Shown: in pieces, positions 7,201-47,297 of the stretch | How the letters are laid out: every line of letters starts with the position of its first letter | Position numbering within the stretch: position 1 is the first letter of the stretch | Assembly: GCA_973895155.1 (NCBI GenBank) | Contig: OZ316891.1 | Coordinates: forward strand, 15,283,037 to 15,347,036 | Direction of reading: 5' to 3' | Origin: Marsupella aquatica | Taxonomy: Eukaryota > Plantae > Marchantiophyta | Length of the DNA: 64,000 nucleotides | Position numbers and translations under genes: made by a program | Notes under the pieces: model-generated | What the model was told of the DNA's origin: nothing | Database searches by the model: none | Seen by the model: the letters and a program-made list of their open reading frames with translations, nothing else

Positions 7201-8005
7201 TTTCCTTTCCTATTAGACTCTTCTGCTTGAAAGAGATAGGATTGTTGATCGCTCTCATTTCATTCAGTCATCTGATAGTGGAGTTTGTTGCCTTGCGCTC
7301 TCGATGTAGATTGTCACTTAGGCTCGCAGGGATAAACGTCAAAATTTCAGGCTCTGTTTTTCGATTGCCCAGTTGGAATATATGAAAAATAAAGAGCTGG
7401 CGTGAGACCGGAGTACTCTGAGGCTCACATTGATCGTCAACTTTGTTTGATGCAGGTTGTTTTCCATCCCTAGAACGGCAGTGATGATGGTAGCTCAGGT
7501 GTTGATGATCGTTGGGCACTTACTATTTGCTACAGCAGTTTCAGGCTCATTGCTGACTGGATCAATTTTGTTGGGTTTCTCATGTGGAGTGCACTACACA
7601 GTCATGGTCCCCACGGCATCTGAACTCTTCGGATTGCGAGACTTTGGAATGATTTACAACTTCATAACAGTCGGATCCCCTGTTGCTTCTCTCCTCTTTT
7701 CTGGAGTGATAGCTGGTTATTTCTACGATAAAGAGGCTGCAAAGTCTGCAGGAGGACTGGGTGTTGCATGTGAGGGGTCTCATTGCTTCAGGGCCACATT
7801 TATAATCATGGCCGCTGTGTGCTTGCTGGGGTTGCTTGCCAACATCGTTCTTACACTCAGAATCAGACCCGTATATCAGTCCCTGTATGGAGTTAGTCTC
7901 CGGCATGCTAACAACAGTTCTTACGAGAGTTTATCTCTTGCTGGCACAGTTCGTAGTTCTGTAAGGTCCTCAAAGTCGACTGACGGTGTTGAGAGCATTC
8001 ATTAG
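4266..8005 (+). CDS. Nodulin-like / NFD4-type major facilitator superfamily transporter; exons 4266-4595, 5953-6941, 7456-8005
   Basis: Motifs KWVGLTAGILIQSLAG, YSPLLKS, GVAKDFGENVG, NFPQSRGTVVGIVKGFIGLSGAIFTQ, RGEDFTLMEALVKADFWLLF, NNLGQIG, SELFGL and CEGSHCF. GT-AG introns with compatible phases (0, then AG|G=Arg). Confidence 0.95.
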
Positions 8006-14657: not shown

Positions 14658-15395
14658 ATTAAAGATGATGGACGAGTTGATGAGTTTCACATCCACGAAT
14701 CCACGCGTTCTGAAGCAACATCCACACTCTGACAACGTTAGAAACTCATTCTCCCACTTCTCTAGCAACGATATTCTGATCAGATTTTCTCAGTAATGAC
14801 GTCTAGGGAACTTCGTGCCCCTTCTAAGGTCACATGTCGCATACATCCGTTTATCGATATCTGAGCAGAGAGGAACAGTGGCAGGCAAAATGATACGCTA
14901 CAATTCAACGTAACGGAGGGGAAACGCTGCGCATGTCAGCCCGGGGTGTGGCCTTTCTCCGCTCTAGCCACCAGCGTAGATATCCCTCCTGCCGGAACAT
15001 GAGTCTCCACATGGACAACTTTCTTTCCTTCCAACGCATGGCATACGGATGCATGTATGGACGCGATGAGGCTGGCATACGTATGGAGCCCGATATTGTA
15101 GTTCTCGCTCGCTCCTAGTATGGGAGTTGGTGGATGATGGGCGGCACAGGATCTCTGGACTGACTCAGTATACACAATTTCGCATGCAAAAACGTCTGTG
15201 ACAGGCTACTCATCTGAGAAAAAATTGGCAGCCTAAGCTCAACAACGCTTGCAAGACAGGAGACCTACCGTATCCATTGATTAAGAGCCCGCCGTCCCTA
15301 TCATGAACCAGGTACCTCTACTTTGTCCCTTGCCTCGGATTGATTTAACTCATCCTAGTTCGGTACAAGTGATCAACATTCTTTGACAGTAGGAC
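14658..15395. repeat. Copy A of a diverged dispersed non-coding duplication (paralog of 36427-36549 + 46217-46962)
   Basis: Shared colinear blocks include GACGAGTTGA..GTTTCAC, TCTGATCAGATTTTCTCAG, GAAACGCTGCGCATGTCAGC, GCTCTAGCCACCA, TCCACATGGACA and CCCTATCATGAACCAGGTACC...AACTCATCCTAGTTCGGTACAAGTGATCAACATTCTTTGACA. Confidence 0.85.
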
Positions 15396-16034
15396 GATCT
15401 TTTAGGAAACTCCCCCTCGTGGGCCGGTGAGAAGCCTTGGATTAACAAAGCCACAAAGATCAGATCCAAAATCTCCACAGGAATTGTGGGCACGTTTGGC
15501 ATACAGCAGGGAAATCAAGGCCAAGGATTCAGATCCACTGCCGGAACGATGCAATGGTTTCCTCGGAAAATCCTGAAAGTACACAAGATCCTGGACGTGA
15601 TGGCCACAAATCTGCTTGGCTCGTGAAGAAACCCCGACTCTGATAAAAACCCTGCTCACTGTTGTGAACAGTAACGTCGAAGAATTCCACCACAGGCCTC
15701 CACAAACCCGAAAAGCAACAAGGCTATATTTTGCACTCCACCGAAATGGAATTCCGAAACGGAAAGTGTCGTCAGATCTGGTCAAGGTCGTAAACCAAGA
15801 ACATAGCCTTCCTGCAAAGGGGGCGCACAGACACGCACACCGAACCCTCGTCTCCCACCGAGCCTCAAAATGCAACTGCCCCGTACTTTGCACTGAAAGT
15901 TCAAGCCCTCCTCCTATTCAACAGTTCACATGAAGTCCAAGAATCCAAGCTCCGGTCCAGGAAGGTCGACAATTATGCCAATACTCCTCCTTGCTGGGCC
16001 AAGCAAGCACGGCCAGCGAGCCAGCCAGCGAACT

Positions 16035-18871: not shown

Positions 18872-19199
18872 CATTCGCAACGGCAAGCCCATGAACCATC
18901 CAACGCACAATAGTCAACATAGAGAGATATGTGGTTCACCTCCACATGAGGCTACGTCCACGAGAACACACAATAGCTTTACTGCACTCTAGGCCGACCG
19001 GCCATACCAAGCATCCACAGCACAAGCTCTCCCTATCTCTCAACTAGCTCCGTAACAATGAGCCTAAGTTCCACCAGGGTCTGGCATCAGCCCTGGCTAT
19101 ATACACAACAGCACTACCGCTAACAATAGCTAAATCCTAACCCGAGTTAGCCTAATTGTAGTTAGCTCATGAGTCACAAGACTAGAGCAATATCTAACA
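18872..19199 (-). repeat. 3' LTR of the copia element (outer 16 bp missing)
   Basis: Aligns without gaps to 25040-25367, with about 11 substitutions by eye. Inner end reads TG on the minus strand, preceded by the PPT. Confidence 0.93.
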
Positions 19200-19210
19200 A
19201 ACTCCCCCTT
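19200..19210 (-). other. Polypurine tract (PPT)
   Basis: AAGGGGGAGTT on the minus strand immediately before TGTTAGA of the 3' LTR. Confidence 0.9.
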
Positions 19211-19409
19211 GACTCTTGTCTTGGGGACTGGACTAAATACTACCATATGGAATCCTCAGCGGGAAGTTCTAGACAATCACCAAACCATGTCTCCCCCTAA
19301 AAACCACAAGGGTTAACTAGGGGTTAACTAGAACTAAGTCGTAGCCAAACAGGAATGAGTAATCCATATACAAATAGTCACACATGATTGCTAAATAACT
19401 CTACTTGCA

Positions 19410-22400
19410 CTACAATTGCAAAACTTGCAAAGTAGCACGGTGTCTTGAGAAACTCTCCAAAGGAATCACTTTGGTAAAGACATCAGCGGGATTGAGCTTT
19501 CCATCAATCTTGACTAGCTCAAAAGTTTTATCAGACACTGCTTGCCTGATAAAATGGTACCTGATATCAATGTGCTTCACCTTGCTATCCATCACTTGGT
19601 TAGCAGCCAAGTGAAGAGCACTCTGACTATCACAATTTAGAGTCATTTTTCTATGCTCTAAACTCATCTCCGCGATCAACTTATCCAACCAAATTGCTTC
19701 ATTTGCTGCTTCTGTTGCTGCAACATACTCTGCTTCTGTAGTAGACTGAGATATCCACTTTTGTAAGGTAGATTTCCAACTGATACATCCTCCTCCAAGA
19801 GTAAATACAAACCTAGTTGTAGACCTCCTTGTATCCAGACAGCCTCCATAGTCAGAATCTACATAGTCAACTAACGTTCTATTTGATCTGTTATCAAATA
19901 GTAACCCATAGTCCTGTGTACCCTTGAGATACCTAAGAATCCACTTCACAGCTTCCCAATGTACCTTCCCTGGATTTGACATGAATCTGCTAACCTTGCC
20001 CATCGCTAGGGCCAAGTCAGGCCTAGTACAAGTCATCAAATACATCAGACTGCCTACTGCCTTCTCATAAGAAATCTTAGCCATCAGACCTTTCTCCACA
20101 ACATCCGTAGGAGAGAAAGCCGATGATAACTTGAAATGTGAAGCTAAAGGAATACTCACTGGCTTACAGTTCTCTATGTTGAATCGTGCAAGTACTTTCC
20201 TTGCATACTGGCCTTGACTCAAGCACAACTGTCCAATGTCAGAGTTCCTAAAAATCTCCATCCCTAAGATCCTCTTGGCCTTACCAAGATCCTTCATCCT
20301 AAATTCAACACTCAATTTCGCCTTGAGACTGTCAACCTCAGATTGATCTTTAGCCACAATCAGCATGTCATCCACATAAATAACCAGAATGATGAAACCA
20401 AACATATCATTCTTGACTGATTTCGTATACACTCAAGGATCATACACCATCCTTATAAAACCTTGAGCAAGCATGAAATCATCAAACCGCTTGTTCCACT
20501 GTCTGGGAGACTGCTTCAATCCATACAAGGACTTGAGCAATCTGCAAACTAAGTTCTCTTGGCCCTTCTTCATAAAGCCTAGTGGTTGTATCATGAAGAT
20601 CAACTCTTCCAAGTTGCCATAGAGAAAAGTAGTAACAACATCCATCTGATCCATCACTAGACCAAAAAACACAACAAGCTGACACAAGATCCGAATTGTG
20701 GAATACTTAGCCACCGGCAAAAAGACCTCATTGTAGTCCACTCCTTTCTTCTGAGTGAACCCCTTGGCAACAAGCCTTGCCTTGTAGATCTTATCTCCAA
20801 CCTCTGAAGGATTGTCCTTCAACTTGTAAATCCACTTGCTGTCCACCACTTGCTGACCTCTTGGAAGCTCCACCAACTCCCATGTCTTGTTGTCACTCAA
20901 AGATTGTAACTCCCTCTGCATTGCTGCATTCCACTCATATTTTTGCTCTGAAGCACAAGCCTCACTGTACGAAGAAGGCTCTCCTTCTTCCAAGATCAAA
21001 GCCATGTCATCTTCATTAGGTGCAATGTCAAACTCATCTAGCTTAGATAAGTCTGCCCATTGACCATACTGGTAGGAGCTCTAGTAGAACGACTGGAAGT
21101 TCTTCTAGTAGATGACTCAGGCTGATCTGTTGCTGCTGCTGGTTGAATTTGAGGTACCCCAGCAACAATCTGCTCCTCTTGTTCCATCACAGGAACCAGC
21201 TCCAAGCCCGGAGCTTCTCCATCTCTCCTGTCATGAACAACATCATGACTAATCTCCCCCTCAACCCCATCCGGGGTGGGAGATTTCCCCTTGTCAGTAT
21301 GGGAGTCCTGATAACTCTCCCCCTCCTTTGATGATCTGGACTCATTAAAGGACACATCTCTACTGACAATTAGCTTACAGGTTACTGGATCCCATAACCT
21401 ATAACCCTTCACACTGTTCTGATAGCCAAGGAAAATGCACTTCTTCAACTTGGACTCCAGCTTGGATCGCAGCTGGGAAGGTATAAGCACACAAGCATCA
21501 CATCCAAAAATCCTCAGATGTGAGTAATCTGCTAGACGCCCGTACCTCATTTCAAATGGCGTCTTGAATCCAATAGAACTGGATGGAGAAAAATTTACCA
21601 AATAAGCTGCAGTGTTGACAGCTTCAACCCAAAACTCATGTGATAAGCATGATTGACTCAACATACTCCTGGAGCGGTCCAATAGTGTTCGGTTGAGTCT
21701 CTCAGAAATACCATTCTACTGAGGAGTATAACTTGTTGTGAGATGGTGGGTAATCCCTTGCTCCTTACAATACGTTCCAAACTCCCTAAAACTATATTCA
21801 CCGCCGTTATCCGATCGAAGATATCTCACCTTATTACCAGTCTCATTCTCAACTTGGACTTTCCACTCCTTAAAAGTGGCAAAAACATCAGACTTATTGT
21901 GTAGAAAGTATATCCACACATACCTTGAGTAATCGTCTATGAACGTGATATAGTATAACCATCCAGAATGTGAGGGAGTAGGGGCTGGACCCCACACATC
22001 ACTATGTACATACTCAAGTACCTCCTTGCTGGTGTGAGTTCCAACTCTGAAGCGTTTTCTGTGCTGCTTCCCAAGCGCACAGTGCTCACAAAATTCCAAC
22101 TTACAAGATTGCAAATTAGAAAGTAATCTTTTTTCTGAAGAATAGCCAAACCTTTTTCACTCATGTGGCCCAAATGGAAGTGCCACAATCAGGCCGTCTC
22201 CTCATGAGATAAGGTTACATTGGCTTCATCACAAACTACACTGCCCTCCAAAACGTATAGATTGCTATGTCTCTTTCCCTTCAATACAACTTTAGTACCG
22301 GTTGAAACCTGAAGGACACCATTAGCAGAACTCCATGATGGCCATTTGCTTCTAAAACTCCAAGTGAAATGAGATTTTTCATCATGCTGGGAATGTGTCT

Positions 22401-23687
22401 CACATTCCTCAACGTTCTTACAGCACCATCAGACATATGAAATCTTATAGATCCAAGTCCAACAACTTGACATGGGATTTCATTTCCCATCAACACTAAC
22501 CCGTTGGAAACCGTGTAAGAACTGAAAAAATCTCTCCTAGAGCAAATGTGAAAAGTACATGCACTATCTAGAATCCAATCATCACTACCTGGATTTGACA
22601 CTACGTTGAGAGCATAACCTTGATATCACAATATGTCATCATCATCGAGTAAATCTACCCCATGCGAGCTCGATGCCGCGTTAGCAGATGCAGTAGGGAC
22701 CTTTACTCGACAATCCCTTTTCATGTGGCCAGACTTGCCACAATTCCAACATGCAAGAGGCTTCCTCTCTTGCAATTTCCCTCTGGATTTAGATCTCCCC
22801 CGTGATGTAGATCTAAACCTATTTTGCCCATTCGTGCATTGCGCTGCTCTTCCCCTGTTCACATTGAGCGTAGTGCCAGAAGAAGATGTTGTCTATGATT
22901 GACCCAGCTTCTTCTGAGCATCAGACAGTAATGAGCTCACCACCTCATTATACAAAATGGACTTCAGATCTCTGTACAAGAGCACCTGTTTCAAGCCCTG
23001 ATATGATGGCGGTAAGGAGCTTAGCAGAAGCAAGGCCTTATCCTCATCTTCAACTCCTTTTCCTAGGTTTGATAGATCCACCGCTAGACTGTCAAACTCA
23101 TCTAGGTGATCCTGCATCTTGCTCCCTTCCTTGAGCCTGAGGCTCATCAAGAGAGACTTCTTGTACAATCGGTCTGACGCATCTTCCTGGTTGTACTTCT
23201 CTCTTAGAGCCTTGAACAGTGACGCGCAATCCGCATAATTATCCAACTGTTTGATGATGTGCGGCTTGAGATATAGCATCACTGCGTTGACAGCAATCAC
23301 CTGCTCCTGTCTCCACTGTCTCACAAAAATCTCTTCCTCTCCATCATACTGCTCTCACAAAGAAAGCAGATGAGCTAAGCCCATGGCCCAAAGGACACTC
23401 TTCGCTTGCTTCTCCCATAGCAAGTAATCAGTACAACCATCGTACTTCTCCACCTCAAACTTCACTCCTCCAAATCTAGCCATCTCCCTCTTCTTCCCCA
23501 CTACCAACAGCTCTGGTAGTAACACAGCTTCCTCCACTGCACGTCGCACCGGTGATCGTACCGGTGTCACAAGTTCCTCCTCAAACGGTAGCAGCTCCTC
23601 CTTTGACTCTCCGTCTGATCGTCGCGATCTTGAAGCTCCACCGACGCCAATTCTTCCAGTATCCTCCGAGTCACTCATATGAAACAA
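19410..23687 (-). pseudogene. Copia gag-pol polyprotein interrupted by stops and frameshifts
   Basis: gag (KFEVEKYDG..., ALLLLSSLPPSY), zinc knuckle CWNCGKSGHMKRDC, protease WILDSACTFHIC, integrase HSDVWGP...LRSDNGGEY, RT KARLVAKGFTQ...YGLKQSPRQW...IYVDDMLI, RNase H DSDYGG...TEAEY...CDSQSA...KHIDIRYHFIR. Split across at least 8 ORF fragments. Confidence 0.95.
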
Positions 23688-25009
23688 TCATGAAAAAATA
23701 TCTTTTTTTGAAACTTCTCATAAAACTCAAAACTCAACACCGCCGCGTAGCCCACGAAGCTAGGAGTCCAATACTGAAAGTCTAAATCAAAATCAAAATT
23801 TGAAAAAAAAGTTATTCAAATTTTGGTCGGGGTGGGTAAAACCTTGGGAAAGTCCCCCATTTTGACCACCTCAGGGAATAACCAAAATACCAAGTGCAAC
23901 CCGTCGTCGGAATTGCGATGTGATTGGTGCGCCGCGTTGCTGACTTCAGTGGCAATGTCCTCGCCAAACAAGAACCAAAAAAGTTATCATTTGGCGGACG
24001 GAATCTTTGCCAGACGGCTGAAAAACAGCTCTCTGTTTTTTGGGAATATTCCCGCACAGTCCAACAGGTCTCACGGGGGGCCGTTCCCCCTGTCGGAGTG
24101 GTTAAAATGGAGGGCGGCAGGTCCCGGGTCCAAGGACAACCAAAGGAGAGGGAAAAAGCTATAAAAAGCGCCCTAAAGGGGGTGCTTAGGCCCCTTAAAC
24201 AAAAAATATAGGTGAATACACGAGGACGGGAGGTGGTGTGTGGGTATACACACGATTGTGTGTGTATTAACACACACAAGGGCCCAATAAAACCCCCCTT
24301 AAAGCAAAAAAGCTCCCCTGGAAAAAAAAGAATGTAAAACTCACTTGAAAAGCCGCTGTTTCCAACAAGAAAAGTGAATGCCGCCGACGGAAAAAGTGGC
24401 TGAATTTCACCGGCATAGTCTGCAGCTCCAGCAGAGTAGAAAATTTCCGCCGCGTCGCCTTCACTCCGCGTCAAGTGCCAATCCCGGGCTCAAAATGACC
24501 GCCTCGCCGCGATCAAACCGTTGAGCCGTAGCACTTCGCGTCTCTTCCACCGAGTCGGACATCACGAAGAGAAACCCGGTTCAGATGTGAACAAGCTCCA
24601 TAGCTTGTGAAAAAAAAACCTGAACGCCTTCGTCACTCGTCATGTCTCACTCGATAACAAATTGGCAACAATCCAGCTACCGAAACGACCACCTCGCTTC
24701 AACCTTCAACTTGAGCTATAATGTGCGACCCCTCCTGCACCGCACAGCTCACACTGTTGAAAAATGCAAACTCTGGTCTCTCCCCTGAAATACCATCGAA
24801 CACGAATAAACCCTGAATGATGCAAACTTCAATTCCTCCGCACCACGGATACCGATCAGCGAGTTCTAACCACCGTTAGAAAGCCCTCTCACTAACCTAT
24901 CCGCTCAGCCACACACATTCAAGTTTCATGCGACGAAACTCCGAATGTACCATCGATAGTGAACGCTGGAAAAACCTGTCACGAAAAAACCTCGTCACCT
25001 CCCAGGCAT

Positions 25010-25021
25010 GCTCTGATACCA
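25010..25021 (-). other. Primer-binding site (tRNA-iMet type)
   Basis: TGGTATCAGAGC on the minus strand, 2 nt inside the 5' LTR end. Confidence 0.93.
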
Positions 25022-25023
25022 CT

Positions 25024-25367
25024 TGTTGAGTATAGACGACATTTGCAACGGCAAGCCCATGAACCATCCAACGCACAATAGTCAACACAGAGAGATACGT
25101 GGTTCACCTCCACATGAGGCTACGTCCACGGGAACACACAAGAGCTTTATTGCACTCTAGGCCGACCGGCCATACCAAGCATCCACAGCACAAGCTCTCT
25201 CTATCTCTCAACTAGCTCCGTAACAATGAGCCTAAGTTCCACCAGGGTCTGGCATCAGCCCTGGCTATATACACAACAGCACTACCGCTAACAATAGCTA
25301 AGTCCTAACCTGAGTTAACCTAACTGTAGTTAGCTCATGAGTCACAAGACTAGAGCAATATCTAACA
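25024..25367 (-). repeat. 5' LTR of the copia element (344 bp, TG...CA)
   Basis: TGTTGAG...TCTAACA termini; direct repeat of 18872-19199. Confidence 0.95.
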
Positions 25368-32996: not shown

Positions 32997-33977
32997 CTAA
33001 TCTACTAGTGTAAATTCAACACAGTTCCCATAGGGGTCACGGGCAAAAATGGCTCGCCGTCCAGACGAGCTTGCGAATAGGAGATTCCTGCATCGATTGT
33101 CACAAAATTGTAAGGTTTGCATGGATGACGGAAAAATAAGATCCCCACCACTGCAGAAATGTAAAAAGATGAATTCCTCAGCCATGATATCAAAAATTCA
33201 TCACAACTTTTCAAACAAGCCTCACCTGCTTTCTCCAAAACAATTTTCAGACCGTCCAAACTCTTTAGGGCTACACAGGTATGTCGATCACGGCCACCAT
33301 AGGCGGGACGGCCAGTCAGAGGGTCGGGATTTGGTAGTTCCATCACATGGATCATTTCTGCTCCAACCCAGAACCAAGCTCCACTATAGGGTAATTTGTC
33401 ATTAGGTCGATCCGGGTTGATAGCATTTTAAAGTCTCAAATCAGTATTATCATGTGATTGGTAAGCACATTTGCAGTCCTTACGGGGCAAAGAGTTTCAC
33501 TCCTTTGTAGGGCAGCAGCAAAACCTCATGCTTCAATGCCTTCATACAAGTAAATTACCCACAGTAGAGGCACCTCTTCCACATCCAGGAATGCTACTTT
33601 CCATCCCCATACAACGTGAATCCCATCAAAGAGTGAAGTATAGAATCCGTTGGTTATCATCCAGTACAAATAGCAGGAAAACCCTATGTATACTCGAGAC
33701 GTGCTTCGCCCCTTGGAAAATCAGAAACCTCGACGCACATTATCGCATAGCAAGTATGAAAATATTTCTCCCTGAAGATGCCGAAGTTGTCGTGTTGCAT
33801 TATGGGGAGATATGATATGGTTGGAATAGTTCAGAACGCTGGAAAAATTGTACGTTAATTCACCCGTCCTAAATATTGTCCAGTCCCATTCAGACAATGA
33901 TATCGTACCTAGGACTCCTTGGTAGAATTCGGCAGACCGCTCCAAATTTTCACATATCACCCCTACATGATATGCAC
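32997..33977 (-). pseudogene. VOC / glyoxalase-bleomycin resistance (lactoylglutathione lyase-like) gene, apparently disrupted; exons ~33977-33909, ~33434-33226, 33087-32997
   Basis: YHVGVICENLERSAEFYQGVLG / INPDRPNDKLPYSGAWFWVGAEMIHVMELPNPDPLTGRPAYGGRDRHTCVA...LEKAG / ISYS..SSSGRRAIFARDPYGNCVEF. There is a 1-nt frameshift near 33070-33075 and no in-frame acceptor for the middle exon. 5' exons are not confidently located. Confidence 0.8.
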
Positions 33978-36426
33978 CTCAGAAGTCGAGACATACACAA
34001 AGTGGATTGTCAGTTTGATCTCAAAGGGCGTCGCAGAGCTTAAGAAAAGAGTCTTCCTGCAATGCGAGTATTTTTAAATTTTGCGAAGTCTCCAAACTTA
34101 GTACCCACCAATAACATGAAGGTTCAATAAGGATATTGGAGCGGTGAATTTCCAAGGAGCTAGTTTTCTCTTTTGACCAATATCCGGCATATATACGAGA
34201 TAAAAAATGATCCCAGGTTAAACTTTTGTAGGTTTCAGACATCAGGATGCAACAAGTTTGCATACACCAACTCAGGTGAAGGGAAAGGGCTGAGAAAGCT
34301 GTTTACTTGGGCTAGTAGGCACTTGCGTCTGTGGAGTCGGTGACAATTCCGCATTGCTGCAGAACAGGAGAGGTAGCACATGGACTTGATCGCTGTAGCT
34401 TGACGTTGGAGAATCGGTTGACATTCTGGCTCGATAAGAACTTGCTCGGTGCAGCTCCTTTCTGCCAGTAACGGAGATCCCAAAATTGAAACAAAGGTTG
34501 CAAAGTCCTAAATTCTCATGAACAAAACAGTCCAATAAACAAAATTTTGAATGCCAGGAATTTTAAAACGTTCTGCACTCATTCACGAAAATCAATAATC
34601 ACGAGTATACAACAAAGCTCTATTTAAGGATGCCAACGTCTCAAACCATCTCATATGTACACAATCTTCATCAGTTCACACACGATGGGAAAATCTACCA
34701 CAACATGCTTGATCCTCCCTTCACAGGTCTTCTTGAAAGCGGAACCCACTGTTTCCTTAGCTAAAACGGCTCCCCAAACGGTCTGGACGACCTCAGTTCG
34801 TGATTTAGACTCCCGCTTAGACTTCCAACTCCTCATGTTGCTGATACTGAAATCTATAATTCTCCCAGAGCTTAAAAGTTTGGGCAAGGCATTTGAAACC
34901 ATCCACCGGCCCCATGTTTAGTAAAATGGCTTGATTTTAAAAAAAAGCTACATTTGGTTTTTGTATCATAGTAAATCAATTCCTTCCCATCCCAGCAGAG
35001 ATGGTGGGAGAATCAGCAAGTGAGCTACTATGGGCTAAGCAGTTATGAATCTCTGAAGTGCTTTGCCCAAGTAAACTCACTCAGGAGCACAGAGGTAGAG
35101 CTTGGACGTGATCATTAAGTGGTCAGGGAGTTTGAAATTATCATGCTTTACTCCAGGTTGCAAGCGTAGCATCAACTTCTGCCCATCATAGTACTCGAGA
35201 CGCTTGTTGTCATCGAGAGTTAGAGTAAAATGGATGATAATGACTCCCGTTGTACAATAAAAATACCTGTCATGGTCCCCAGGAACGCGGGGCTGTCTGT
35301 TGGCCTGTTTCCTAACTTCCCCTAGGAGAAGATTCTTGTCCGACGTACCTCATAGCTGCAATCAGGTTGCCTCTACTCGATGCAGCAGATTGGGGTTGTG
35401 GAATGGGCAAAGCCCGGGTCTGCTTTAGCCGCTTGCCCTTTGGACTGGAAACAATTTGATTAGTAGAGTCAATTCTAGAAGATGGCAATACAGGGGAAAA
35501 GCGTGCCGGTGGATATCTCAGGATGGGCTGATCCCCTTGTGTTGCTTGGGATAATCCCTTTCCAACAGCCCGTCGTAGTGGAGGAGAGCGTTCAGGCGCC
35601 CGGCGCATTCTTCTCGTCGGATTGTCGTCTTCGTCAGTGGATTCCTTGATGTTGGACTGTCCGGGATGGGATTGATGTTCATAAAAGCTGTATCCGGGAC
35701 TGTATCCCGGGCTCTAGTGTGAGCCCTGGGGCAAGCCACTAGCAGCCTGCCGGGAATTGGATTGACCGCCTCATTGTTAGTGATTGACCTGCACTGTGAA
35801 GATGGTTGAGCAGAGCATTCCATCTCATCTATAAAATGACAAGTAGGAGAAGATTGGCACTCTCAACCCCTCAATTGCTTGCATTGTTTTGTACAGAGGA
35901 GTGCTGCCACATGTTTGCAATGGACAAACCACACTTTAAAATTCTCTCAAATTGCTACCTCCCCTGATATGAAAAGAGCCCCAGCATCCGCACTGGTGCT
36001 TGCTATTGGGGCCTGGTCCAGCACATTGACCAATATTCAGGTCAATCATACTTGAATGAAACAAAGGCCAGCACTACAAAGTGGCTTCGGGAGAGCACAT
36101 TGCAACGGGTAGCCTTTAATTCGTTGCGAATATTTGCTAGATCCTACCTCTCTAGAACAATTTTAGTAAGTTTTTTTGTCTCGATTGCGCAGCTCTGTTT
36201 CTCTCTTTGTCGGAGAGTAATTTACCGCAAGCAACTTTATCGGGTGCTTCAGTGGACTTTCAGACAATTGGAGTGTCTCTTTCCCTCCCAATGGTCTCTA
36301 TGTGGGATGAAAGTAGGAATGGCCAAAAGTGCAGACAGCTACAGAGCAAAATGTACACCATTCGTTACTTAGTGACACGGTTCCTGGCTGTCAGTGCTGT
36401 CGGTGTACCAAAACCTTGCCATTGTC

Positions 36427-36549
36427 ATTACAGATGATCGACGAGTTGAAAAGTTTCACCTCCACAAATCCCACTTCTCTAGTGACAATAATCTGATCAG
36501 ATTTTCTCAGAAACGCTGCGCATGTCAGCAAGGGGTATGGCGTTTCTCT
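36427..36549. repeat. Copy B (left part) of the non-coding duplication, interrupted by the MULE; includes TSD GTTTCTCT at 36542-36549
   Basis: Colinear with 14658-14960. Confidence 0.8.
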
Positions 36550-36858
36550 ATTCACGGCTATTCCAAATATCGATGCACATTAATGAGGGGTGAGGGAGCG
36601 TTTACAGGGATTTACGGTAATTGGGTCGCGCTTACAGGAGTTTAGTGTTTAGGGCAGTCCGTACAATAGACGGGCAGGGTGTCCCTCGAACGACCACCGC
36701 ACTACCCGGCCTGTCCCCAAAGCCTGCACTGCCCTGTCCCTATTGCTGGCTGCCCCTCCCGGGCCCGCCCTACCCATACCGGCCATAACCCGCTCACTCT
36801 CGAATCTCTCGGGTCGCGAGCGATTTTACCTCCCCGGCCATCCGCGTATCCAGTGTGA
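36550..36858 (+). repeat. Left TIR (309 bp)
   Basis: ATTCACGGCTATTCCAAATATCG...GTATCCAGTGTGA; reverse complement of 45908-46216 with about 11 mismatches by eye. Confidence 0.96.
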
Positions 36859-37157
36859 TTTGTAGAAATGCTTGGAATGTAATGGAATGCACCTTATGTA
36901 CGCATTCAAATTCCTAATACTGTTTGAAAACCTGCTTTGAGCGGGATGGCGTGTAGGGTATGAAGGGAATGGAATGAATCGCAGGTCTCCAAATTTGATT
37001 CCTCTAAGGGAATGTACTAACTTGTCCTGCACATGTCATTCCCTGCCAAAGAATACCAAAAGAGTGTGTACTCAGGAATGGAATGTCGTGCCATGTGCCA
37101 GGTGATTAATCGTGCGGTAAGAGCTTACTAGGAAACTGAACACTTCACATTTGTGCA

Positions 37158-40100
37158 ATGTCAGGAACTTCTGTGTTACAACTTTTGCACTTGGAGGCTC
37201 TCCTTGATTCTTTCAAGTCATCCACGCCTGTGCCAATGTTGGATCCTTTTTTACAGGGCGGGACCGCCTATATGAAGACTGGAATAGACACAGAGCACTT
37301 GAAATCATTGGACGTCATAGACACAGTGCACATTTCGACAGCAAATGATGTGGAACCGGATGCACTTGATGTTGTCCTGGACCATCTACGCGGACTCACT
37401 CTCCAGGATTACGAGGAACAGTTTCATAATGAGTATGTGCCACCGATACGCAAAAGTCATTCCGAATATTTGAAATGTGACCGGATTCAGATTCCGCACG
37501 CAGGTGAATTTGAACTTAATGCTCTTGATTGGTTTGGATCAAAATCCGATTATGCTTGGATTCCAGAGGGAAGGCTTAAAGATTTCATTTGGGGCGAGAA
37601 TATGCGGGACAATTTCCACACACAATTCACTACTCGGCAGTTGGTAGAGAATCGGATATACAAGACAGGTCCGCTGGTGAAGACAACTACCCTATATTGT
37701 TGTTGTTTTGGTCCTGAAGATTACCGAGGTTGGAAAAGTTCAAAGGTACCAGACAAACTGAAATGCAAGGATACTGGCGTGTTTTTGAAGAGGAAAACAA
37801 TTACAGGTGAAGTTGTCTTATTTGCACTCGCTCCTTGTTTGCGAACAGTCCAACTGTGCATGAATTGAATTTATTTGCAAAGTCCCACTCACGCTTGGCA
37901 TGGGCTGCTGCAGGAATGTCGGTACGTCGTGGTTGTCGATGCTCGTTTACCTCCACAAAATATGAGGACCGGCTTGGGGCTGTATTGATAAAATGGATCC
38001 AAAAAGATCATTTGGACAAGCTTGGTAACATTTGCCATGGCCTCAAAGACCCCATAGCCTCTGAAGCAAATGCACATATTGCTCCAAGAATCTCATTGAA
38101 GCTCAGGACCAAAATCGAACGATACCTGAGGGCTGGGTTGACTGCCAAGGCAATTGTTGATGCACATTTCGAGGAAATTCTTACCAGGTGGCGTAAGGAT
38201 CACCCGGATGAGGATGCTGACGTCATCATGTCCAGAGACATGCAGCTAACTCCTAGGGACGTGCAAACTGTCAGGGATTCTATGAGACGACGTCAACCAG
38301 ACTATTTCTCGGATGAAGCACAAGCCACTAAACTCTGGGTTCTTCAGAATGAAGACCAAGTTTTGTTGTATCAATCGCAGGTGAAAGTGAACAACCAGCC
38401 TTTTATTCTTGTGTGGTCATCCCATTGGCAGCAAAAGAAGCTAGCACAACTTGGTCATCACGGGCCAGTAGCATTCGATGCCACTTTTGGCACCAATCAC
38501 CTTGGGGTAAGTACTAAATTGTTTGGCGTGTTTGATACCCTGTTGCATCTGTTATATGAAATTTACGTTCCTTCTGAGCACTGCAATTTTCTGTTGTAAT
38601 TTCAGTTTCCATTTTACACAGTTGTCGTCTTCGACAAATTCCAAAATGCCATTCCCGTAGCATTTGCGGTTTTGCAATCATACAAAGCAGTACATGTGGC
38701 CCAAGCCTTGAATGCCATGAAGGATTGTGTGGATGCGCGGAGGGCAGAAATGAATCTCAACCTCCCTTGGACGCCCAATTGTTGGATCATTGATGTAGCT
38801 GACGAGGAGCAGTTAGCAATCAGGTATGGGTCGTATTACACTGCTGCACATGAATTGGAAGTAGCACGCTTGAAGAGAAGTTGGAATCATGTGTTTTGTA
38901 TGATAACGTTTTTCAGACAGGTATTCCCAAACGTGCATATTACATTCTGCACATGGCACGTTCGAAGGGCCTGGACCAAGAACATCATCTCCAAAGTGTG
39001 TTGCCCATTTGCCAAGGCCCAGATCAATGCTGATTTGGGGACAATCATGTATCCAAATGGCTCCGGTGAGTGCCATTCATTATTTATTATTCCACTGCGC
39101 ATCGATTTCATATGAACTATTCTTAATAAGTCCCTCCATAATGCACAAAACCTAACCTTACTCCATGTCCGGTGCAGACCTCAGTGACGAGTCCGAAGCC
39201 TTTATGGATCGATGGGTTGACAGTCAACCAGGATTTGTGGCTTACTACAGAAGAGAATGGCACAACAAAGTCGCCAGTTGGGCTGTCCAGTTACGAGGCT
39301 ACAATCACGCAAACCAGAACACGAACGGTGGCATTGAGCGGTGGCATCACACCCTGAAGATGGAGTTAAAGGCAGGGAGGTACACTATTACAGGACGCTC
39401 CATCCCCTGGCTACTTGGGGTGTTAAAGTGCTTGAGAACCATTACTAGTGCATGTGTGCAGATAAATTCCAGGGCCGCATTAGGAATAGGACCATTGAAG
39501 GCCATGTACACAAGTCACTCACCAGGGCCAAGGCAATCCCAGATGACTATGTCCAAACATTCAAATGTGGTTCTGCCAGATGTGCCTCGGTTCGCAGCAC
39601 GTCAGCACAGAATTTCTGCCTGGGCCCAAAGGAGCATGTTGTCACTGACTGGGACAAGGACATATGCTCTTGTACATGTGGGTACTCCCTTCAGAGGAAT
39701 GCATGCAAGCATCAGGTACAAACTGCACAAGCCATCATTTTTTGCATCATCCCGCTAGCCTTTCCATGCACCATTTCATCCTGTATGATGTGCTACAGAT
39801 CAAAGTGTTGCTGTTCACAGAGAAGATGTTTGAGCTGGAAATTTTGCATCAGCTCGGCACAAAAATGGGTTCGTTTTCGGGTGGACTAGACCACCATTTC
39901 AATATTAGTAAAGGACTTTGTCCACAATTGCCCACAGAGGTAGGCAACATCACTTTGACGTTTGACAATGAGGATATTTGGGAGGAACGGAATGGTGATG
40001 TTTCGCAGTGTATTGAAGTGTCACCACCATTGGAGGAGTTCAGAGTACTTGTGAAGGAATGTTACGACCAAATTTCCTACCACCCAACCCTTGCTAAGAC

Positions 40101-40800
40101 CGCTTTGATAGAGTTAAAGCAATGGATGGAGTCCATTTTGAGGAGGGAAGCACAACAAATTGTGGGTAGGCTACAGCGGGACACGGGTCCTGAGACACTC
40201 ATTCCGACTGAAGGTTCCGATCAAACTACAGTGAGGAAAGAAGGGTGGGTGGACAAAATGATGGGTGCAAAAGCGAAACGACAGCGCAAAGTAAAGGGCC
40301 CGGGTCACAACAACAAAGAAAACCAGGCCCCGTATCCGGTAGGGGACTTGCACAATTTAGTATGTGGACCACATGCGCCAGAGAAACTGCACATAAAAAC
40401 TAAGGGGCAACAACCATCATTCCAGGCCAAATTTGAGAAGGAGTCCATAGACGCGCTCGCAAACATGTGCCAAGCGTTGTCAGACCAAACACATGTGGAT
40501 AAAGGCACTGCAACACCTTCCGCGATGCGCAGACGCAAATGCACCATTTCCACAACGTCCAACACAGGGAAGAAGATCAAAAATAGAGCAGCCGCTCCAG
40601 CTCAAGTGGACGATGTACTCACCCAGTGCTCTAAGTCAAGCATGCTGAATGGGCCTCTTAGCCAGGCAATAGTGGCGTTGATCGGAGATATCCACATCGG
40701 GTCTAGCCAGGCCTGGGCAATGTCTCCTAACTTCTCAGAGATTTTACGAGCTTTCTCGGCAGGAGTGTCATCCACCGTAGACCGCTCCACGGAAGTCTAA
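37158..40800 (+). pseudogene. MULE transposase (DDE + SWIM zinc finger); exons 37158-37806, 37914-38506, 38606-38823, 38917-39065, 39178-39715, 39799-40800; disrupted
   Basis: FDATFGTN (D1), WIIDVADEE (D2), FCTWHVRRAW (CxxH), NTNGGIERWHHTLK (E) and CSCTCGYSLQRNACKHQ (SWIM). All introns are GT-AG with matching phase. Frameshift near 39425 and TAG at 39446-39448. Confidence 0.9.
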
Positions 40801-41629
40801 CAACATGTAGTATCCATTGCTGGAGATTAGTGACAAGCCCATGAATAATTCACTATCATGAATAATAAAACACTTGCGAATAGTATTTGCGTGCTTGTAG
40901 TATTTGCGTGCTTGTAGTATTTGTGTGAATGATATGGATGTTTGCACTCCAATACTAGACACACTACTCAGCCAAAGGGTCAATTCACGGCGGACCCTTT
41001 GGCGCGCCAATCCACAATTACAGGAATCATTTTAATAATTCACCATTCGATCATAACACGAGTGCCCATGCGCCAAAATATAATGAATGAATGAATGATG
41101 GCCACGTACTCCAAAGCAAATCTGAAAGTAGTGCAAAATCATTCGTCATTTATGAAATTAAACCATTCTCATTATTAAAAACGTGTTGCAAACACGTAGA
41201 TGGTACTGTGTATATATTGTAATAGTGAATGAACAATAGTCTTTCAAAATTCGTTCTTTTCGACATAAAAATAAATAAAAAATATGTCCATCCATTTAAT
41301 CTTCTTCATCTTTCGATGTGAGATACATACTAATAACGCTATCCCGTGCAGAGAAGCGAGAGGTTCATGGCCGCCGACCTCTCCGGTGGGTGGTCCCCGT
41401 TACCTTGTACTAGCATCGTACCCTACATAACCACTCCGGTGCATGTATGGAGCTGGTCTGCTATAAACTCCCCGGCCAACCGACTGTATTGGAAGCAAAA
41501 ATATATGGCAGCATGCAACCCATCATTTGCGCATATATGAAAACGCTGCATATATAAGTGGCCCTACTCCAAATTCAATGCCCCTACACACGATTTGGAA
41601 TTTTTGCTGTGGCCGCGCTAGGAAACTAG

Positions 41630-44239
41630 TCACTCACTATCTAAATTCTCGACCATTTTTTGAACCTCACTGCACTGGGCAGCCGCTGCTATAATTTGTT
41701 CCATGAGGTCACTCATTGGTGTCGCCACACTCTTTGGAACACTCTTTGGAACTTGCTGTTCTTTCTTGGAACCAATATCAGGAGGATTGTCCAGGGTGAC
41801 CTTCATTTCTGGTACAGTTGGAGTTGTACCCGCTTTGGGGACTGCTTCATTATCATTTGATGCTGTGTCCAACTGTGCATGCACAAAAGAATCCCGGGCA
41901 CCTGATATTGGCTGAAGTAGCACTACTGGTGCATCTGACTTTGGTGCCAATGTTGTCACTGGTATATCGTGCTGCTCTAGAACATTGGCTGCCGGTAAAT
42001 GTCCAAACAGGTCTTCAGCATCTGCATCAAGGCAAAGTTGTTCGAGTTTCTCTTCAGCATCGGACTCGGACATGAGGTCCTGGTCTGATGTGTCCGTCCA
42101 CACTGACTCCAACTCAACCTATACAATGTCATTTCAGACACAAATGTTATTCTCAACCAAGAATGATTCCATAATGTAACAAGATTGCAGCGCACGTACG
42201 TCAAGTGAATGGTACATTACCTACTTCAATGCTTCCTCATCTGTACATGAGTTAATTGACTTGTACATGGCAACAATGCTGGGTTTGTAAGTGTCAATAG
42301 CCTTTTGCTTACGGTTTGCCTTCCATAGCTTGTACTCATTTTCGCCCATGGTCTAATAGCGTGGCCAGCCGTGTTCTTCCTCCCATAATAGAGAGTCTCA
42401 TTTTTGACGCATCCAATTCATAGCATCTTTGCAGAGCATTTTGCGTATGACTGCCATGCCATCATGCACTTCAATGGCATCAAATTCGCCTTCCAATGGC
42501 TGAAAGAAAGTGGACAGCACCGAAGCACTTCTGGTCATGCGCTGAACATCAAAATCGTGTAAATGTGCATATCCACCATGTTGTATGTCAGCAAAGGCGC
42601 GCTGGACCCAGGAACAAACATACCTTGTGTGTGGGCATTGGGAAACCATGGCCTGCAAGCAAGCCCAATCGCAATCATTGATCAGGCTGTCCCATGCGGA
42701 AAAGCCAATTCTAGGCATCATATATGTGAAGAAGAGAATGAAAACATTCTCTGCTGGAACAACGGGCTGGGGAATTCGTGATCGGTTCTCTTCAAATTTA
42801 GTCACAAACTTGCGTTGTGTTGACGACCTGCATGACATGTAATCACTTTAGTCATTGAGTACGGGACATAACTGAAAAGAGAGGGATTTTGGCACGATAT
42901 GGAACGATGTGCTGTAATACTCACTTCACCCGTCTTTTTGCCATGCTCCATCGTTGTCACAACGTACCCCTTACATTGTAGTAATTGGGGGAAGGTTCTG
43001 CCCCTGGCTGCTTCCTTCGAGCTGCATTCCTTGCCTCACGTTGGCGTTGTGCAACTGGGTCCTTTGTGTACAGGGATGGTGGGTTACCGCCACTGATGAG
43101 GCCGTGCTTCTTGAAAACATGGCACCCATAGGTTTGCTGGGTCTTAAAAACCACATTCTTGCAGGGCAACATCTTACACACAGCTCTGGACCCATATACA
43201 AAATAATGAACTCCCTCCTTAGCATGGCTTTTGCCGTGTAACTCCTGTAAGTCATTGGACGTTCAGAATGAAAGGCCCATGCATGTATAAGTGAAGAATA
43301 TAGTGAGTAACAAGCAGAGTTGTGGGGCAATGTAATTGCTCTTACCGACTTGCAGTGGGAACAAGGCTCGGGTAACGCTGCACATTTGTAGAAATCAGCT
43401 GGCCTGGGCATGTACTTCCCCTTCACAGACAACTGGTCTGAGCCCCGGTCTGAGCGCCTACGTGTCTGCGGGGCAACTTCATCATCATTGTCCGCCTGAT
43501 TGCCTGAATGTTCGCTACATTCAGGTACAACCCTTTGGTTGTCGTGAACTTTGCCTCGGTTGCTCTCTATATTGGACCCCTACCTTTGCTTTACGTGGAG
43601 TGAACCTGGTGTGAGGTGGCAACTCAACTTGACCACCGTTGGATTTTCTTTTTTGCCCACTTGCAGGAGGGACAGCACCGGAGGGACTCGGCAATGTTGC
43701 AATCATGACCACATCACCATCGTCATCGTCTTTGGAGTCAGAGTGTTCGGTGGCTTCGGGTAGCGGCAGTATGTTTTGGTGCACGGGGCCACTTTGAATT
43801 GGCAAATGGGGCTCCTGGGTGGATGGTGCGCTGGCTACAATGCCTGGCTGACGGGGTGCGCTTGGTACAACGCTGGCCGGTGCTGGCAAAGCAAGAACCA
43901 TCAGGTGTGGCTCAGGCAAGGCAGGAGTGTCCAAGTCATTACCGTCAATGACAGTTGGGACCGAGGTTGAAGTGGGACATCTCCACATAGCCAATCTTTG
44001 GTTAGCAGCCTGACAGTGAAAACCGAGAAGAGAGTGAAAATGAAAATTACAATAAGGTGAATTGAACTGATGGACAATATAACGTGCCGGAAGTGTCATA
44101 CTTAATTAGAGGAATACAGGAACAGTAGCCTGGATCTATAATATTAAGTACCCGAATTAGCATTTGAAAGACAAATTGTAATCCGTAATGTGGCGAGCCA
44201 AGTACCTGCTTCTTTGTTCGGTGCATTTTTCCCTAACAC
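41630..44239 (-). pseudogene. MULE accessory gene B: spliced protein with Pro-rich N-terminus, Cys/His zinc-binding motifs, an unrecognised globular domain and an acidic tail; disrupted
   Basis: Exon-like blocks bounded by AG/GT at ~44239-44205, ~44009-43346, ~43244-42925, ~42827-42222 and ~42118-41630. Motifs CAALPEPCSHCKS|ELHGKSH and CKMLPCKNVVFKTQQTYGCHVFKKH. Frameshift near 43530 and TGA at 42957-42959. Boundaries are approximate. Confidence 0.6.
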
Positions 44240-44670
44240 CTGCATGACAGATTGTGCAATCATAGCACACACTTAGTAAAATGGAGGGGAATGTCAGTGA
44301 AGGAGTAACAGTACAGACTTCTGCAATTTTTATTCAATTTTTGCATGTAGTCCTACATTTACTAATATACAGAACAACGCAATTAAAAGAGACTTTGGGA
44401 TAATTGGATCATGGCTTCGTGATATTCAAGTGGAAGGCATATGATGACAATGGAGGCATGCAAAGAAACAAGTGGATAAAATAAACATTGGACAGTACGC
44501 AGGACACAGTGTTTGAAATAAATAACTTTGCTTCCATCCGCATACATATTGGCCAGGCACTCTCACATCGAGTGGAAATTGAGGAACCTGCCACTTTGAA
44601 AGTTGCAGGGCACAAAAAAGTAATATCTCCAAAAAACACTAAGCACCCTAAACCTGCACTGAGTCTACAT

Positions 44671-45552
44671 CTACCGGCTGCGCCCAGAGTACACATCCAA
44701 TGATGAACTAAACACTTCTGCAAGGCGTTGGACAATGGATGACATCGTGCCCTGGGCTCCTGAATCGTCCACATTGTCATCAGCTTCCTCTTGTAGCAGG
44801 ACTGACCCATCTCCTGTGGTTGATGTAGGTGTGGTGTAAGACGTTGTCGGGGATTCGCTTATAGGTGAGTGTGCACTGACCATGGAGGGGTTATCGCGCA
44901 TTGTTGTAGGGGATGCATGTACAATTCTTGAAGCAACAGGATCAACGTTGCAGCCATCGATAGCGCTTTGACACGGGAGGTGTGCTCGGGAGCTCTGAGG
45001 TGTTCGTTGTTGCGTAGGGGTTCATGTTTGGGTCCATAGACGGGACTGCGGCAAGGTACTATTTGAAGCAACAACGTCCAACTCATTCACAGTCAATATA
45101 CCGCGATTAATCCGGAACATGACATTGCAAAGGGGCGCATCCTTCACCGAATCATGGATCAGTTGGAATTGATCAATTGGATCCATACAAGCTAAAGCAC
45201 GAGCGGAGAGGCCCAACAAATTTTGTGCAGCATCCCATATAGCGGCCGTCAAAGCTGGCTTCCCATAATTAGACTCCCGCATCCCGTCCGATAACAGCAA
45301 CTCAAAATGAAAGAACTTGGTGTACAATCCATTCTACAATGCATCATGCTCGCAATGCTTATTTTGAGGCCCTTCTGTTGAAACCTTGCACAGCCCTCTT
45401 GGAATCTTCTCTGTACAGCCTCGATAGAGGAATTTCTTGGGAAATGGATTCGTGGCAATGAAGTTAAAAACCACGACACTGCATGGACCTATATACCCTG
45501 TGTCCTCTCTCATGAAGGCTGCTTGTACATCAAAGAGAGTTGGCATCAACAT
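44671..45552 (-). pseudogene. MULE accessory gene A: RPA70 C-terminal (DBD-C)-like OB fold with zinc-ribbon remnant and S/T/P-rich tail; disrupted
   Basis: FLYRGCTEKIPRGLCKVSTEGPQNKHCEH...YTKFFHFELLLSDG...LTAAIWDAAQNLLGLSARAL resembles the RPA1 DBD-C pattern (Y.AC...C..K.....C..C...Y.l.l.isD.t....t.F...ae.llG.sA..L). In-frame TAG at 45334-45336 and frameshifts near 45040-44960. Confidence 0.65.
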
Positions 45553-45907
45553 TGAGTTTGTCTTACCGTCGTGAATTGCTTCGCAGTGCTTTTAATCCTT
45601 CGTATGGGACTCACAAATGCACACTATATTCTGCTCTCTGCAAAACTGGAACAACATTATGAATAAACCTCGCTTGGACCTAAACCTCAAATTCAAAGGG
45701 CTTCATTTTGAGTGAATGGTCGATGTTGCACACACTAACCTCAAGCGCACAAAGCTCGATTGCTGATTGCCAAAACGCAAAGTGGCAGAGTATGCAATAG
45801 GTCACACACTATCGTCGCAAAAAAGTAGCGCGGGAAGGAAGGTTCTAGATGCAAGGTCCTCGGGTATCGCAGACCTTCACGTCGTACCCCTCCAGTATGA
45901 AGTTCAC

Positions 45908-46216
45908 TCACACTGGATACGGGGATGGCCGGGGAGGTAAAATCGTTCGCGACCTGAGAGATTCAAGAGGGAGCGGGTTATGGCCGGTATGGGTAGGGCG
46001 GGCCTGGGAGGGGCGGCCAGCAATAGGGACAGGGCAGTGCAAGCTTTGGGGACAGGTGGGGTAGTGCGGTGGTCGTTCGAGGGACACCCTGCCCGTCTAT
46101 TGTACGGACTGCCCTAAACACTAAACTCCTGTAAGCGCGACCCAATTACCGTAAATCCCTGTAAACGCTCCCTCACCCCTCATTAATGTGCATCGATATT
46201 TGGAATCGCCGTGAAT
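45908..46216 (-). repeat. Right TIR (309 bp)
   Basis: Reverse complement of 36550-36858. Confidence 0.96.
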
Positions 46217-46962
46217 GTTTCTCTGCTCTAGCCACCAAAGTGGATGTCCCTCTTGCCGGAACTTGAGTGTCCACATGGACACCTTTCTTTTCCTTCCACC
46301 ACATGGCATCCGCAATGAGGCTGGCAACCCGACACTGTGGGTCTCGCTCGCTCCCACTGTAGTATGGGAGTGCGTGGATGACCCAGGATCTCTGGGAAGA
46401 CTCACTCAACTGGGAGTTTCCAAGCTGGGTCATTAGTGAAAGTTAGGGAGTTGTGGTATATTCCATAAATGTGGGGTAATTATAACGCGAGCAAAAGGTA
46501 CAAATTTTTCTCGCACGAGCAAACAAATTTCCTGCATGACCCCTATTTTTCTACATGCAACTGCCTCGCTATCAACTACCTGGTTGGTAACATCCCTTTT
46601 GGGGACTCCCTTTTTGCTAGCAAGCTCACTAACCATCTGGACTCTTTAAAAAACACAAAAAATGTAGAAGGCACCAAAAAGCGACTGAAATTTGGAATCA
46701 TTATTGTCTCGCTATCAAAATCTCCTGTTTGCTTGCAACATAGAATACCTCATAAATGTGGTTACGGGATTCAGTTATAGAATTTTTTAAATGGGGGAAG
46801 TAGCATTAACCTGCCCCATAAGGCAGGATTTGCAAGACAGAGAGACCGAGAAGCGCCTGCCCTCCCTATCATGAACCAGGTACCTTCACTTTGGGCCTTG
46901 CCTTGGATTGATTAACTCATCCTAGTTCGGTACAAGTGATCAACATTCTTTGACACTAGGAC
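46217..46962. repeat. Copy B (right part) of the non-coding duplication
   Basis: 46217-46400 matches ~14953-15165 and 46830-46962 matches ~15250-15395. Confidence 0.8.
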
Positions 46963-47297
46963 AGTTATCATTTAGCCAACTTGGGCAGTGTCATTCAAGG
47001 GGTTTACAACCATAGTTCCTGAGTGCTCGTGAATTAACTAGCACAATTCCCAAGTGTAGTTTGGCTCTAGTTTTGACCTGAAAATTGTGCCTGAAAGTGT
47101 ATAATCCTGGCTGCATGCTAGCCAAGGGGGTCAAAATGTCATAAGCCTGGTCCATATTTAGGCTGAGGTTATGGCTCATATTTAGCCATGGAAATACAAA
47201 GAGTAAATTGCAGGAGGCTATTTGTTTCACATCCAACCACAATTTTGTTTCGTTGCCAAACGTGTCATGAAGGGTATAACAAATATACCTTGTCTCC

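Follow-up and report, generated by a model that had tools for sequence, protein, structure and literature searches.

A decayed Mutator-like transposon in a liverwort genome with a putative DNA-binding accessory unit facing its transposase

A 64,000-nucleotide stretch of the genome of the liverwort Marsupella aquatica (assembly GCA_973895155.1, contig OZ316891.1, forward-strand positions 15,283,037 to 15,347,036; hereafter the window, whose numbering is used throughout) contains at 36550-46216 a Mutator-like element (MULE) in which a transposase gene on the plus strand faces two accessory coding regions, A and B, on the minus strand. The element is bounded by terminal inverted repeats (TIRs) of 309 bp, the left at 36550-36858 on the plus strand and the right at 45908-46216 on the minus strand, which pair at 96.4% identity, the 11 mismatches being 7 transitions and 4 transversions. 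The same 8-bp target-site duplication (TSD), GTTTCTCT, which has no strand of its own, lies on both flanks, at 36542-36549 and 46217-46224. At 14752-15411 we found a paralog of the sequence flanking the element in which the two flanks are contiguous, an empty site where the 8-mer occurs once, in slightly diverged form, at about 14953-14960; because of this site, the ends of the element and its 8-bp duplication are fixed independently of the TIRs, and both features, first proposed from inspection of the DNA alone (hereafter the sequence-only reading), were borne out. The element is nested in another dispersed repeat, recognizable at 36469-36548 and 46218-46981, of which the paralog at 14752-15411 is a copy.

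The transposase gene (37158-40800, plus strand, about 1046 codons) consists, as the sequence-only reading had it, of six exons (37158-37806, 37914-38506, 38606-38823, 38917-39065, 39178-39715 and 39799-40800), separated by five introns, all GT-AG and 83-112 nt long. Its frame is open for ~620 codons, spanning D405, D477, a CxxH at residues 498-501 and E590, and is then broken near 39430 by a frameshift and at 39446 by a TAG; downstream of these lesions lie a CxC-x8-CxH motif (39671-39712, plus strand), which we read from the sequence and take to be a SWIM-type finger, and then the long last exon. One exon open reading frame (ORF) matches the Pfam MULE family PF10551 (E 3.6e-4, 21.4 bits, under the 27.6 cut-off), and the Atlas score to MULE clusters is 0.94, with all 10 of the 10 best named matches in the MULE family. 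A word-based protein search with exon 2, covering proteins of 346-2000 aa, gave no match. The label DDE-SWIM first given to this gene is sustained in its DDE residues; the putative SWIM finger and an N-terminal WRKY-GCM1-type motif are visible by eye only, and Pfam reports neither. The protein may resemble the Arabidopsis SWIM proteins AT1G60560 and AT4G13970. The hAT superfamily, which also produces 8-bp TSDs, was considered and rejected in view of the 309-bp TIRs and the lack of any hAT Pfam match in six transposase ORFs; hAT elements have short TIRs and a hAT dimerisation domain. With its long TIRs, a TSD confirmed at 8 bp by the empty site and a MULE-type DDE transposase, the element is a member of the MULE superfamily, the definition of which includes a TSD of 8-11 bp (PMC6446971, in excerpt). 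Because of the frameshift and the stop codon in its transposase, the present copy is dead and cannot be autonomous.

Opposite the transposase, gene B is read on the minus strand through four large exons. The first (43346-44009), a linker rich in proline, serine and threonine that ends in a Cys cluster, contains a frameshift between 43582 and 43523; the second (42925-43244) encodes a zinc finger of the form C-x4-C-x13-H-x4-H and has a stop at 42959; the third (42221-42827) encodes a helical domain of ~200 aa and has stops at 42400, 42355 and 42223; and the last (41630-42118) encodes a conserved V-x-T-S-D motif followed by an acidic low-complexity tail, for a total of four stops and one frameshift in this copy. 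Just ahead of the finger, at 43346-43420 on the minus strand, we noted a Cys/His cluster (C-x6-C-x2-C and two His across the intron), whose residues could bind a second zinc; it is unseen in the relatives read.

Searching 1.84 billion representative proteins with the helical exon returned 18 matches at E<=0.001, from which P0022, a 2110-aa repeat protein (E 6.6e-4), was discarded as spurious. The 17 relatives kept are 20-41% identical to B; the 12 that are named, among them CAM6122973.1, CAM6098397.1 and CAM6100777.1, all come from the liverwort Calypogeia fissa, where they lie on 12 contigs of different length, while the other five are unnamed, and most, at 104-412 aa, are incomplete gene predictions. 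One of them, P0005, aligns over 100 aa with the finger exon, at 49% identity, and over 196 aa with the helical exon, at 32%. The relatives are open at the positions of the B stops, with R or K in 10 of 11 rows and E, D or Q in 9 of 11 at two stops. Another, P0014 (CAM6103829.1), begins with a PLATZ domain (E 4.9e-19), continues with a long acidic linker and ends in a B-like part; this fusion may be either a true variant or a gene-model chimera. Pfam has no family for the common region in B or in any of the 17 relatives. A B profile added one cluster in a search of proteins of 57-721 aa, a range that leaves fused forms outside its scope, and a PDB sequence search with the profile gave nothing significant. 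Metagenome, viral and plasmid collections, also searched, gave no matches. A model of P0005 built from 15 sequences (predicted local distance difference test, pLDDT, 67.3) shows a beta-hairpin and helix at residues 2-44 and long helices at 82-317. Fold searches, made with the whole model and not with the finger alone, gave no match with Foldseek in either PDB or BFVD at E<=0.001; the best VIA Z, 8.7, was to generic helical hairpins, and the best Atlas score was 0.79. On these alignments B belongs to a conserved multi-copy protein family that has no Pfam name, and the zinc-finger accessory gene of the sequence-only reading stands as a C2H2-like finger exon with conserved relatives.

Upstream of B on the minus strand, region A (44671-45552) encodes a 176-aa alpha/beta domain bearing Cys and His residues and, after it, a tail of 116 codons rich in serine, threonine and proline; stops interrupt it at 45336 and 45024. 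Its likely start is the ATG at 45552, behind a 103-nt 5' intron (45740-45638), and a TAA at 45594, being upstream of that ATG, was dropped as a lesion. The tail is open in 161 of 20,000 shuffles. To our eye the domain appears to follow the pattern of RPA1 DBD-C, and we compared it with profiles of archaeal members of PF08646, built first from 32 and then from 91 sequences. hhalign matches it in register, over 72 and 84 columns, to this family's zinc ribbon, two strands and the helix that follows them, an alignment that makes it plausible, and in our estimate somewhat probable, that A is an RPA-like zinc-ribbon oligonucleotide-binding (OB) fold. Several results weigh against this assignment: the hhalign score is equalled by 21 of 328 and 11 of 273 shuffles (P about 0.04-0.06) and the HMMER score by 89 of 2,000 and 175 of 3,000; P0005, a relative of B used as control, scored higher than A in three of the profile tests; and no relative of A was found among 1,101 candidates in a word-based search of proteins of 180-576 aa. 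Pfam and NCBIfam hold no match to A, a PDB sequence search gave nothing significant, and its model, folded alone, is poor (pLDDT 32.6). The OB-fold gene that had been proposed here is therefore not established; against archaeal RPA profiles it is borderline.

Whether A and B form one gene or two turns on a 34-nt mini exon (44206-44239, minus strand), which either joins A to B in frame or holds B's own ATG at 44226. The GT at 44674, which lies within A's last codon, is the best of 58 potential donor sites between 45100 and 44250, with a score of 5.4 where the element's nine other donors score 4.1-7.7 when each is left out in turn. Spliced from it, A, the mini exon and B make one in-frame ORF of about 997 codons with seven stops and one frameshift in all, and P0014 follows the same plan with PLATZ as its N-terminal module. 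We lean, with little conviction, to a single spliced gene. The case for separate genes, to which we give not quite even chances, is that A terminates at 44671, followed by a poly(A) signal of its own, and that B starts at the mini-exon ATG: a natural-looking stop (44673-44671), an AATAAA at 44334, the in-frame ATG at 44226 and a TAG at 44235 in the joining frame all tell against one ORF, as does the length of the joining intron, 435 nt against 83-196 nt in the remaining introns. An A-like part is missing from all B relatives, most of which are the short partial predictions described above. Two genes would also leave B a promoter region of only ~100 bp, would make a coincidence of the best local donor, two bases into A's last codon with the join in frame, and would have to accommodate the fact that the mini exon and the A tail stay together in the sister contigs described below. 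This alternative concerns gene count and fits either of the accessory functions considered below. Because splicing can bring A and B into one ORF, the three genes of the sequence-only reading may be two; its coding regions on the minus strand, converging on the transposase, are real, while their number is uncertain and every coding part is broken.

The stretch, or part of it, is present in five sequencing runs from three studies under three organism labels, none of them recorded as RNA, which says nothing about expression, and contigs of sister copies were aligned from four of the six listed runs at 80% likeness; run X5 (organism C), which has short low-depth pieces only, was excluded as a carrier of the stretch. 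Among the 763 contigs aligned in run X1, 375 are less than 90% alike to the present copy. In X1 the transposase core has a summed contig depth of 109-181, B (at 42592-43379) one of 72-110 and A (at 44562-45349) one of 78-92; contigs identical to the present copy have 14-21, the linkers 22-30, part of the spacer 14 and the left end ~21. Run X2, from another study and under another organism label, has the same profile (transposase core 392-656, B finger region 216-349, A 267-372, its own contigs 35-42, linkers 75). Joints within single contigs, 39983>40417, 40448>42260 and 42304>42937, occur at equal depth (19.8 in X1, 41.5 in X2), and the path they trace, which leads from the last transposase exon through the helical exon of B to its finger exon, is probably one contig; a further joint, 44219>44820, connects the mini exon to the A tail in X1, X2 and X3. 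Several diverged relatives thus carry the transposase, B and A in common, mostly without the linkers. Since these sisters cover all three parts and single contigs join them in order, we consider it very likely that the cargo is an accessory unit of the family rather than a one-off Pack-MULE capture, and the possibility raised at the outset, that A and B occur in the present copy only, is answered by the diverged sister contigs that hold both.

Beyond the core comparison, 40 differences between sisters were considered individually (1,255 further ones exist), of which 27 lie in the transposase and 9 in the B tail, the 4 non-coding ones being left aside. Those in the transposase are synonymous in 22 of 27 cases, and in X3 a sister contig that reaches the site with a loose end has a Trp codon where the present copy has the TAG at 39446. 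Three points count against a shared, maintained unit: in the acidic tail of B only 4 of the 9 differences are synonymous and 5 are not, six of the nine being adjacent; no listed contig covers the whole element; and depth, in these runs, is not a measure of copy number. The dispersed repeat around the element reaches a summed depth of up to 2547 at 46532-46925 in X1. The left junction (35997-36589) is identical in X1 and X3 and in X2, runs labelled as two organisms, and the insertion is therefore common to both.

The same sisters bear on the idea that A and B are host-gene fragments carried passively, in the manner of a Pack-MULE, and have no role for the element. Lesions are indeed more numerous in the cargo than in the transposase, and A has no relatives. 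Yet the element owns a full six-exon transposase gene, sisters 80-95% alike hold the A and B regions with their exons better conserved than their linkers, and the many relatives of B are spread over 12 contigs of one liverwort with no host family matched; we regard passive carriage as improbable. Still less probable is that A and B are a gene of a second transposon nested in the MULE, for instance an RPA-like gene of a Helitron or an accessory gene of some other DNA transposon. Plant Helitrons typically have RPA-like genes (PMC6431247, in excerpt), and P0014 has a different N-terminal module; but no internal inverted ends and no second duplication were found within the element, the right TIR occupies a promoter position, 350 bp upstream of A, and the order of the parts is unchanged in the sister contigs.

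The two coding units converge on a spacer, as the sequence-only reading saw, though not one that is markedly AT-rich or confined to ~40800-41340: it runs between the converging stop codons from 40801 to 41629, and its GC content of 0.41, against 0.47-0.48 in the genes, makes it mildly AT-rich. It contains a 17-bp unit repeated 2.8 times (40881-40927) and a 190-bp piece (41251-41440) that is also found, with different flanks, in contigs of depth 600 in X1, 1253 in X2 and 186 in X5 (there with 14 differences). This piece, which matches nothing in Rfam or among plasmids, is probably an inserted fragment of organelle-like or other high-copy DNA.

What would such a unit do? We propose, as a slightly better than even account overall, that the element is a decayed member of a multi-copy Mutator-like transposon family in which the accessory unit facing the DDE transposase encodes a DNA-binding helper of transposition; the helper role itself we put somewhat short of even. 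The proposal builds on what was observed directly (the ends, the TSD, the transposase, the lesions, A and B in diverged sisters and the conservation of the B family), from which we infer a mechanism. Intact members would move by cut-and-paste, catalysed by their DDE enzyme. As in maize MuDR, transcription would start from inward-facing promoters in both long TIRs, that of the transposase from the left one and that of the accessory unit from the right one; in MULEs the TIRs contain the transposase promoter (PMC6446971, in excerpt). The C2H2-like finger would recognize the element's DNA, and the helical domain would serve for oligomerisation or for contact with the transposase. Domain A, if RPA-like, would hold single-stranded DNA at the element ends or in the excision gap, favouring insertion or a gap repair that restores the donor copy. 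The accessory DNA-binding protein would in this way act with the transposase at the element ends, comparable to mudrB, for which a need in integration is reported. One observation sits uneasily with the helper. Stops are denser in the accessory unit, 7 in about 997 codons against 1 in about 1046 in the transposase, and the unit may have become dispensable late in this lineage and decayed first.

Anti-silencing, which the sequence-only reading had offered as one role for the module, ranks second to the transposition helper, and we think it unlikely. A VANC-like protein would use the finger to bind short motifs in non-coding DNA and remove or block methylation of its own subfamily. Consistent with this, a finger of sequence-specific appearance sits on a fast-diverging scaffold with disordered linkers, the accessory parts diverge more between sisters than the transposase core does, the genes of the element are depleted in CpG (observed/expected 0.54-0.71) as expected under host methylation, and the spacer has its 17-bp unit. 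Target arrays are another matter. Neither the 17-bp repeat nor the six GGAATG in the left subterminus (36859-37157) exceeds what other windows or shuffles contain, 14 of 425 windows of 300 bp having some 6-mer equally often; in the non-coding DNA of this decayed copy the top 7- to 10-mers are within the range of shuffles, 87 of 200 shuffles attain the count of 10 seen for the commonest 6-mer, and TAGTATT is at chance level within the window. Nor do B or its 17 relatives have a Pfam match to DUF1985, DUF287 or PMD, and VANC is described as dicot-specific (PMC13547354, in excerpt). With no match to VANC domains and no enrichment of target motifs in this decayed copy, the anti-silencing module is not supported.

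Extending the helper proposal, liverwort MULEs might carry a lineage-specific protein of finger and helical domain with an exchangeable N-terminal DNA-binding module, RPA-like here and PLATZ in a Calypogeia relative, so that self-encoded single-stranded DNA binding steers gap repair or strand transfer. We offer this as a speculation, doubtful on present evidence; if true, it would give a cut-and-paste transposon its own single-stranded DNA-binding protein, a resource hitherto linked to rolling-circle Helitrons.

Elsewhere in the window, an element at 18872-25367 on the minus strand has 328-bp long terminal repeats (LTRs) that are 96.6% identical and a pol frame broken by stops; we take it to be a Copia-type LTR retrotransposon. 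We also presume two host genes, a nodulin-like major facilitator superfamily transporter at 4257-8005 (plus strand) and a glyoxalase-like gene at 33005-33427 (minus strand).

Accessory genes such as mudrB, VANC and PMD are where MULEs innovate, and nearly all described examples are from flowering plants. In a liverwort, a conserved accessory family without a name would offer a handle on transposition or the evasion of silencing by MULEs of early-diverging plants, and if A is RPA-like, the way MURB-type helpers act on DNA, long open, would become assayable through a predicted binding of single-stranded DNA. As matters stand, the element is another accessory-gene MULE, known from a dead copy, whose most striking label, the OB fold, is putative.

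The two genes of maize MuDR, mudrA and mudrB, have a convergent layout. The liverwort element shares with MuDR its long TIRs, DDE transposase and a second unit; that of MuDR, mudrB, is of unclear function and reportedly required for integration (PMC6446971, in excerpt). The liverwort element differs in its 8-bp TSD and in its accessory unit, which spans about 1000 codons and combines a C2H2-like finger with a helical domain and perhaps an OB fold. Arabidopsis MuDR-type elements typically have two to three genes (PMC13547354, in excerpt), and VANDAL21/Hiun (vanA, vanB, vanC) is likewise a MULE with more than one accessory ORF; VANDAL accessory proteins evolve faster than the transposase, and the motifs bound by VANC form arrays in non-coding DNA (PMC5735166, in excerpt). 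The element described here, by contrast, has neither a DUF1985 or DUF287 match nor, in this decayed copy, an enrichment of target motifs, and its TIRs are long and near-perfect. In the aphid MULE Spectre, which also has an 8-bp TSD, and the yeast MULE Mutyl, with mutB, a second ORF has a C2H2 finger or a DNA-binding role; these come from other kingdoms, have TIRs of 22-76 bp and, in the survey table as excerpted, no helical or OB-like part (PMC6446971). Angiosperm MULEs with an antisense PMD gene (groups 42 and 45-50) resemble it in having an antisense ORF opposite a SWIM-bearing transposase (PMC6446971, in excerpt), whereas A, B and the B relatives have no PMD match in Pfam. The RPA-like proteins of Helitrons, with RPA1 DBD-C (PF08646), are matched by A in register over 72-84 columns at a score near that of shuffles, A itself having no Pfam match. 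Helitrons are rolling-circle elements without TIRs or a TSD. RPA is carried by plant Helitrons (PMC6431247, in excerpt); in the survey of 50 MULE groups there are antisense PMD, mutB, OTU, SET and C2H2 ORFs and, in the excerpted text, no OB fold (PMC6446971), and the excerpted text of PMC1702500 mentions neither RPA, OB-fold nor PLATZ. Our literature search, which had Repbase and Dfam outside its scope, found no published MULE with an RPA or OB gene, nor this liverwort family; the layout was not encountered in the literature searched, and the family as such is not proven to be undescribed because those two databases lay outside the search. MULEs with accessory genes are a known kind, and it is the accessory unit that sets this element apart as a new variant.

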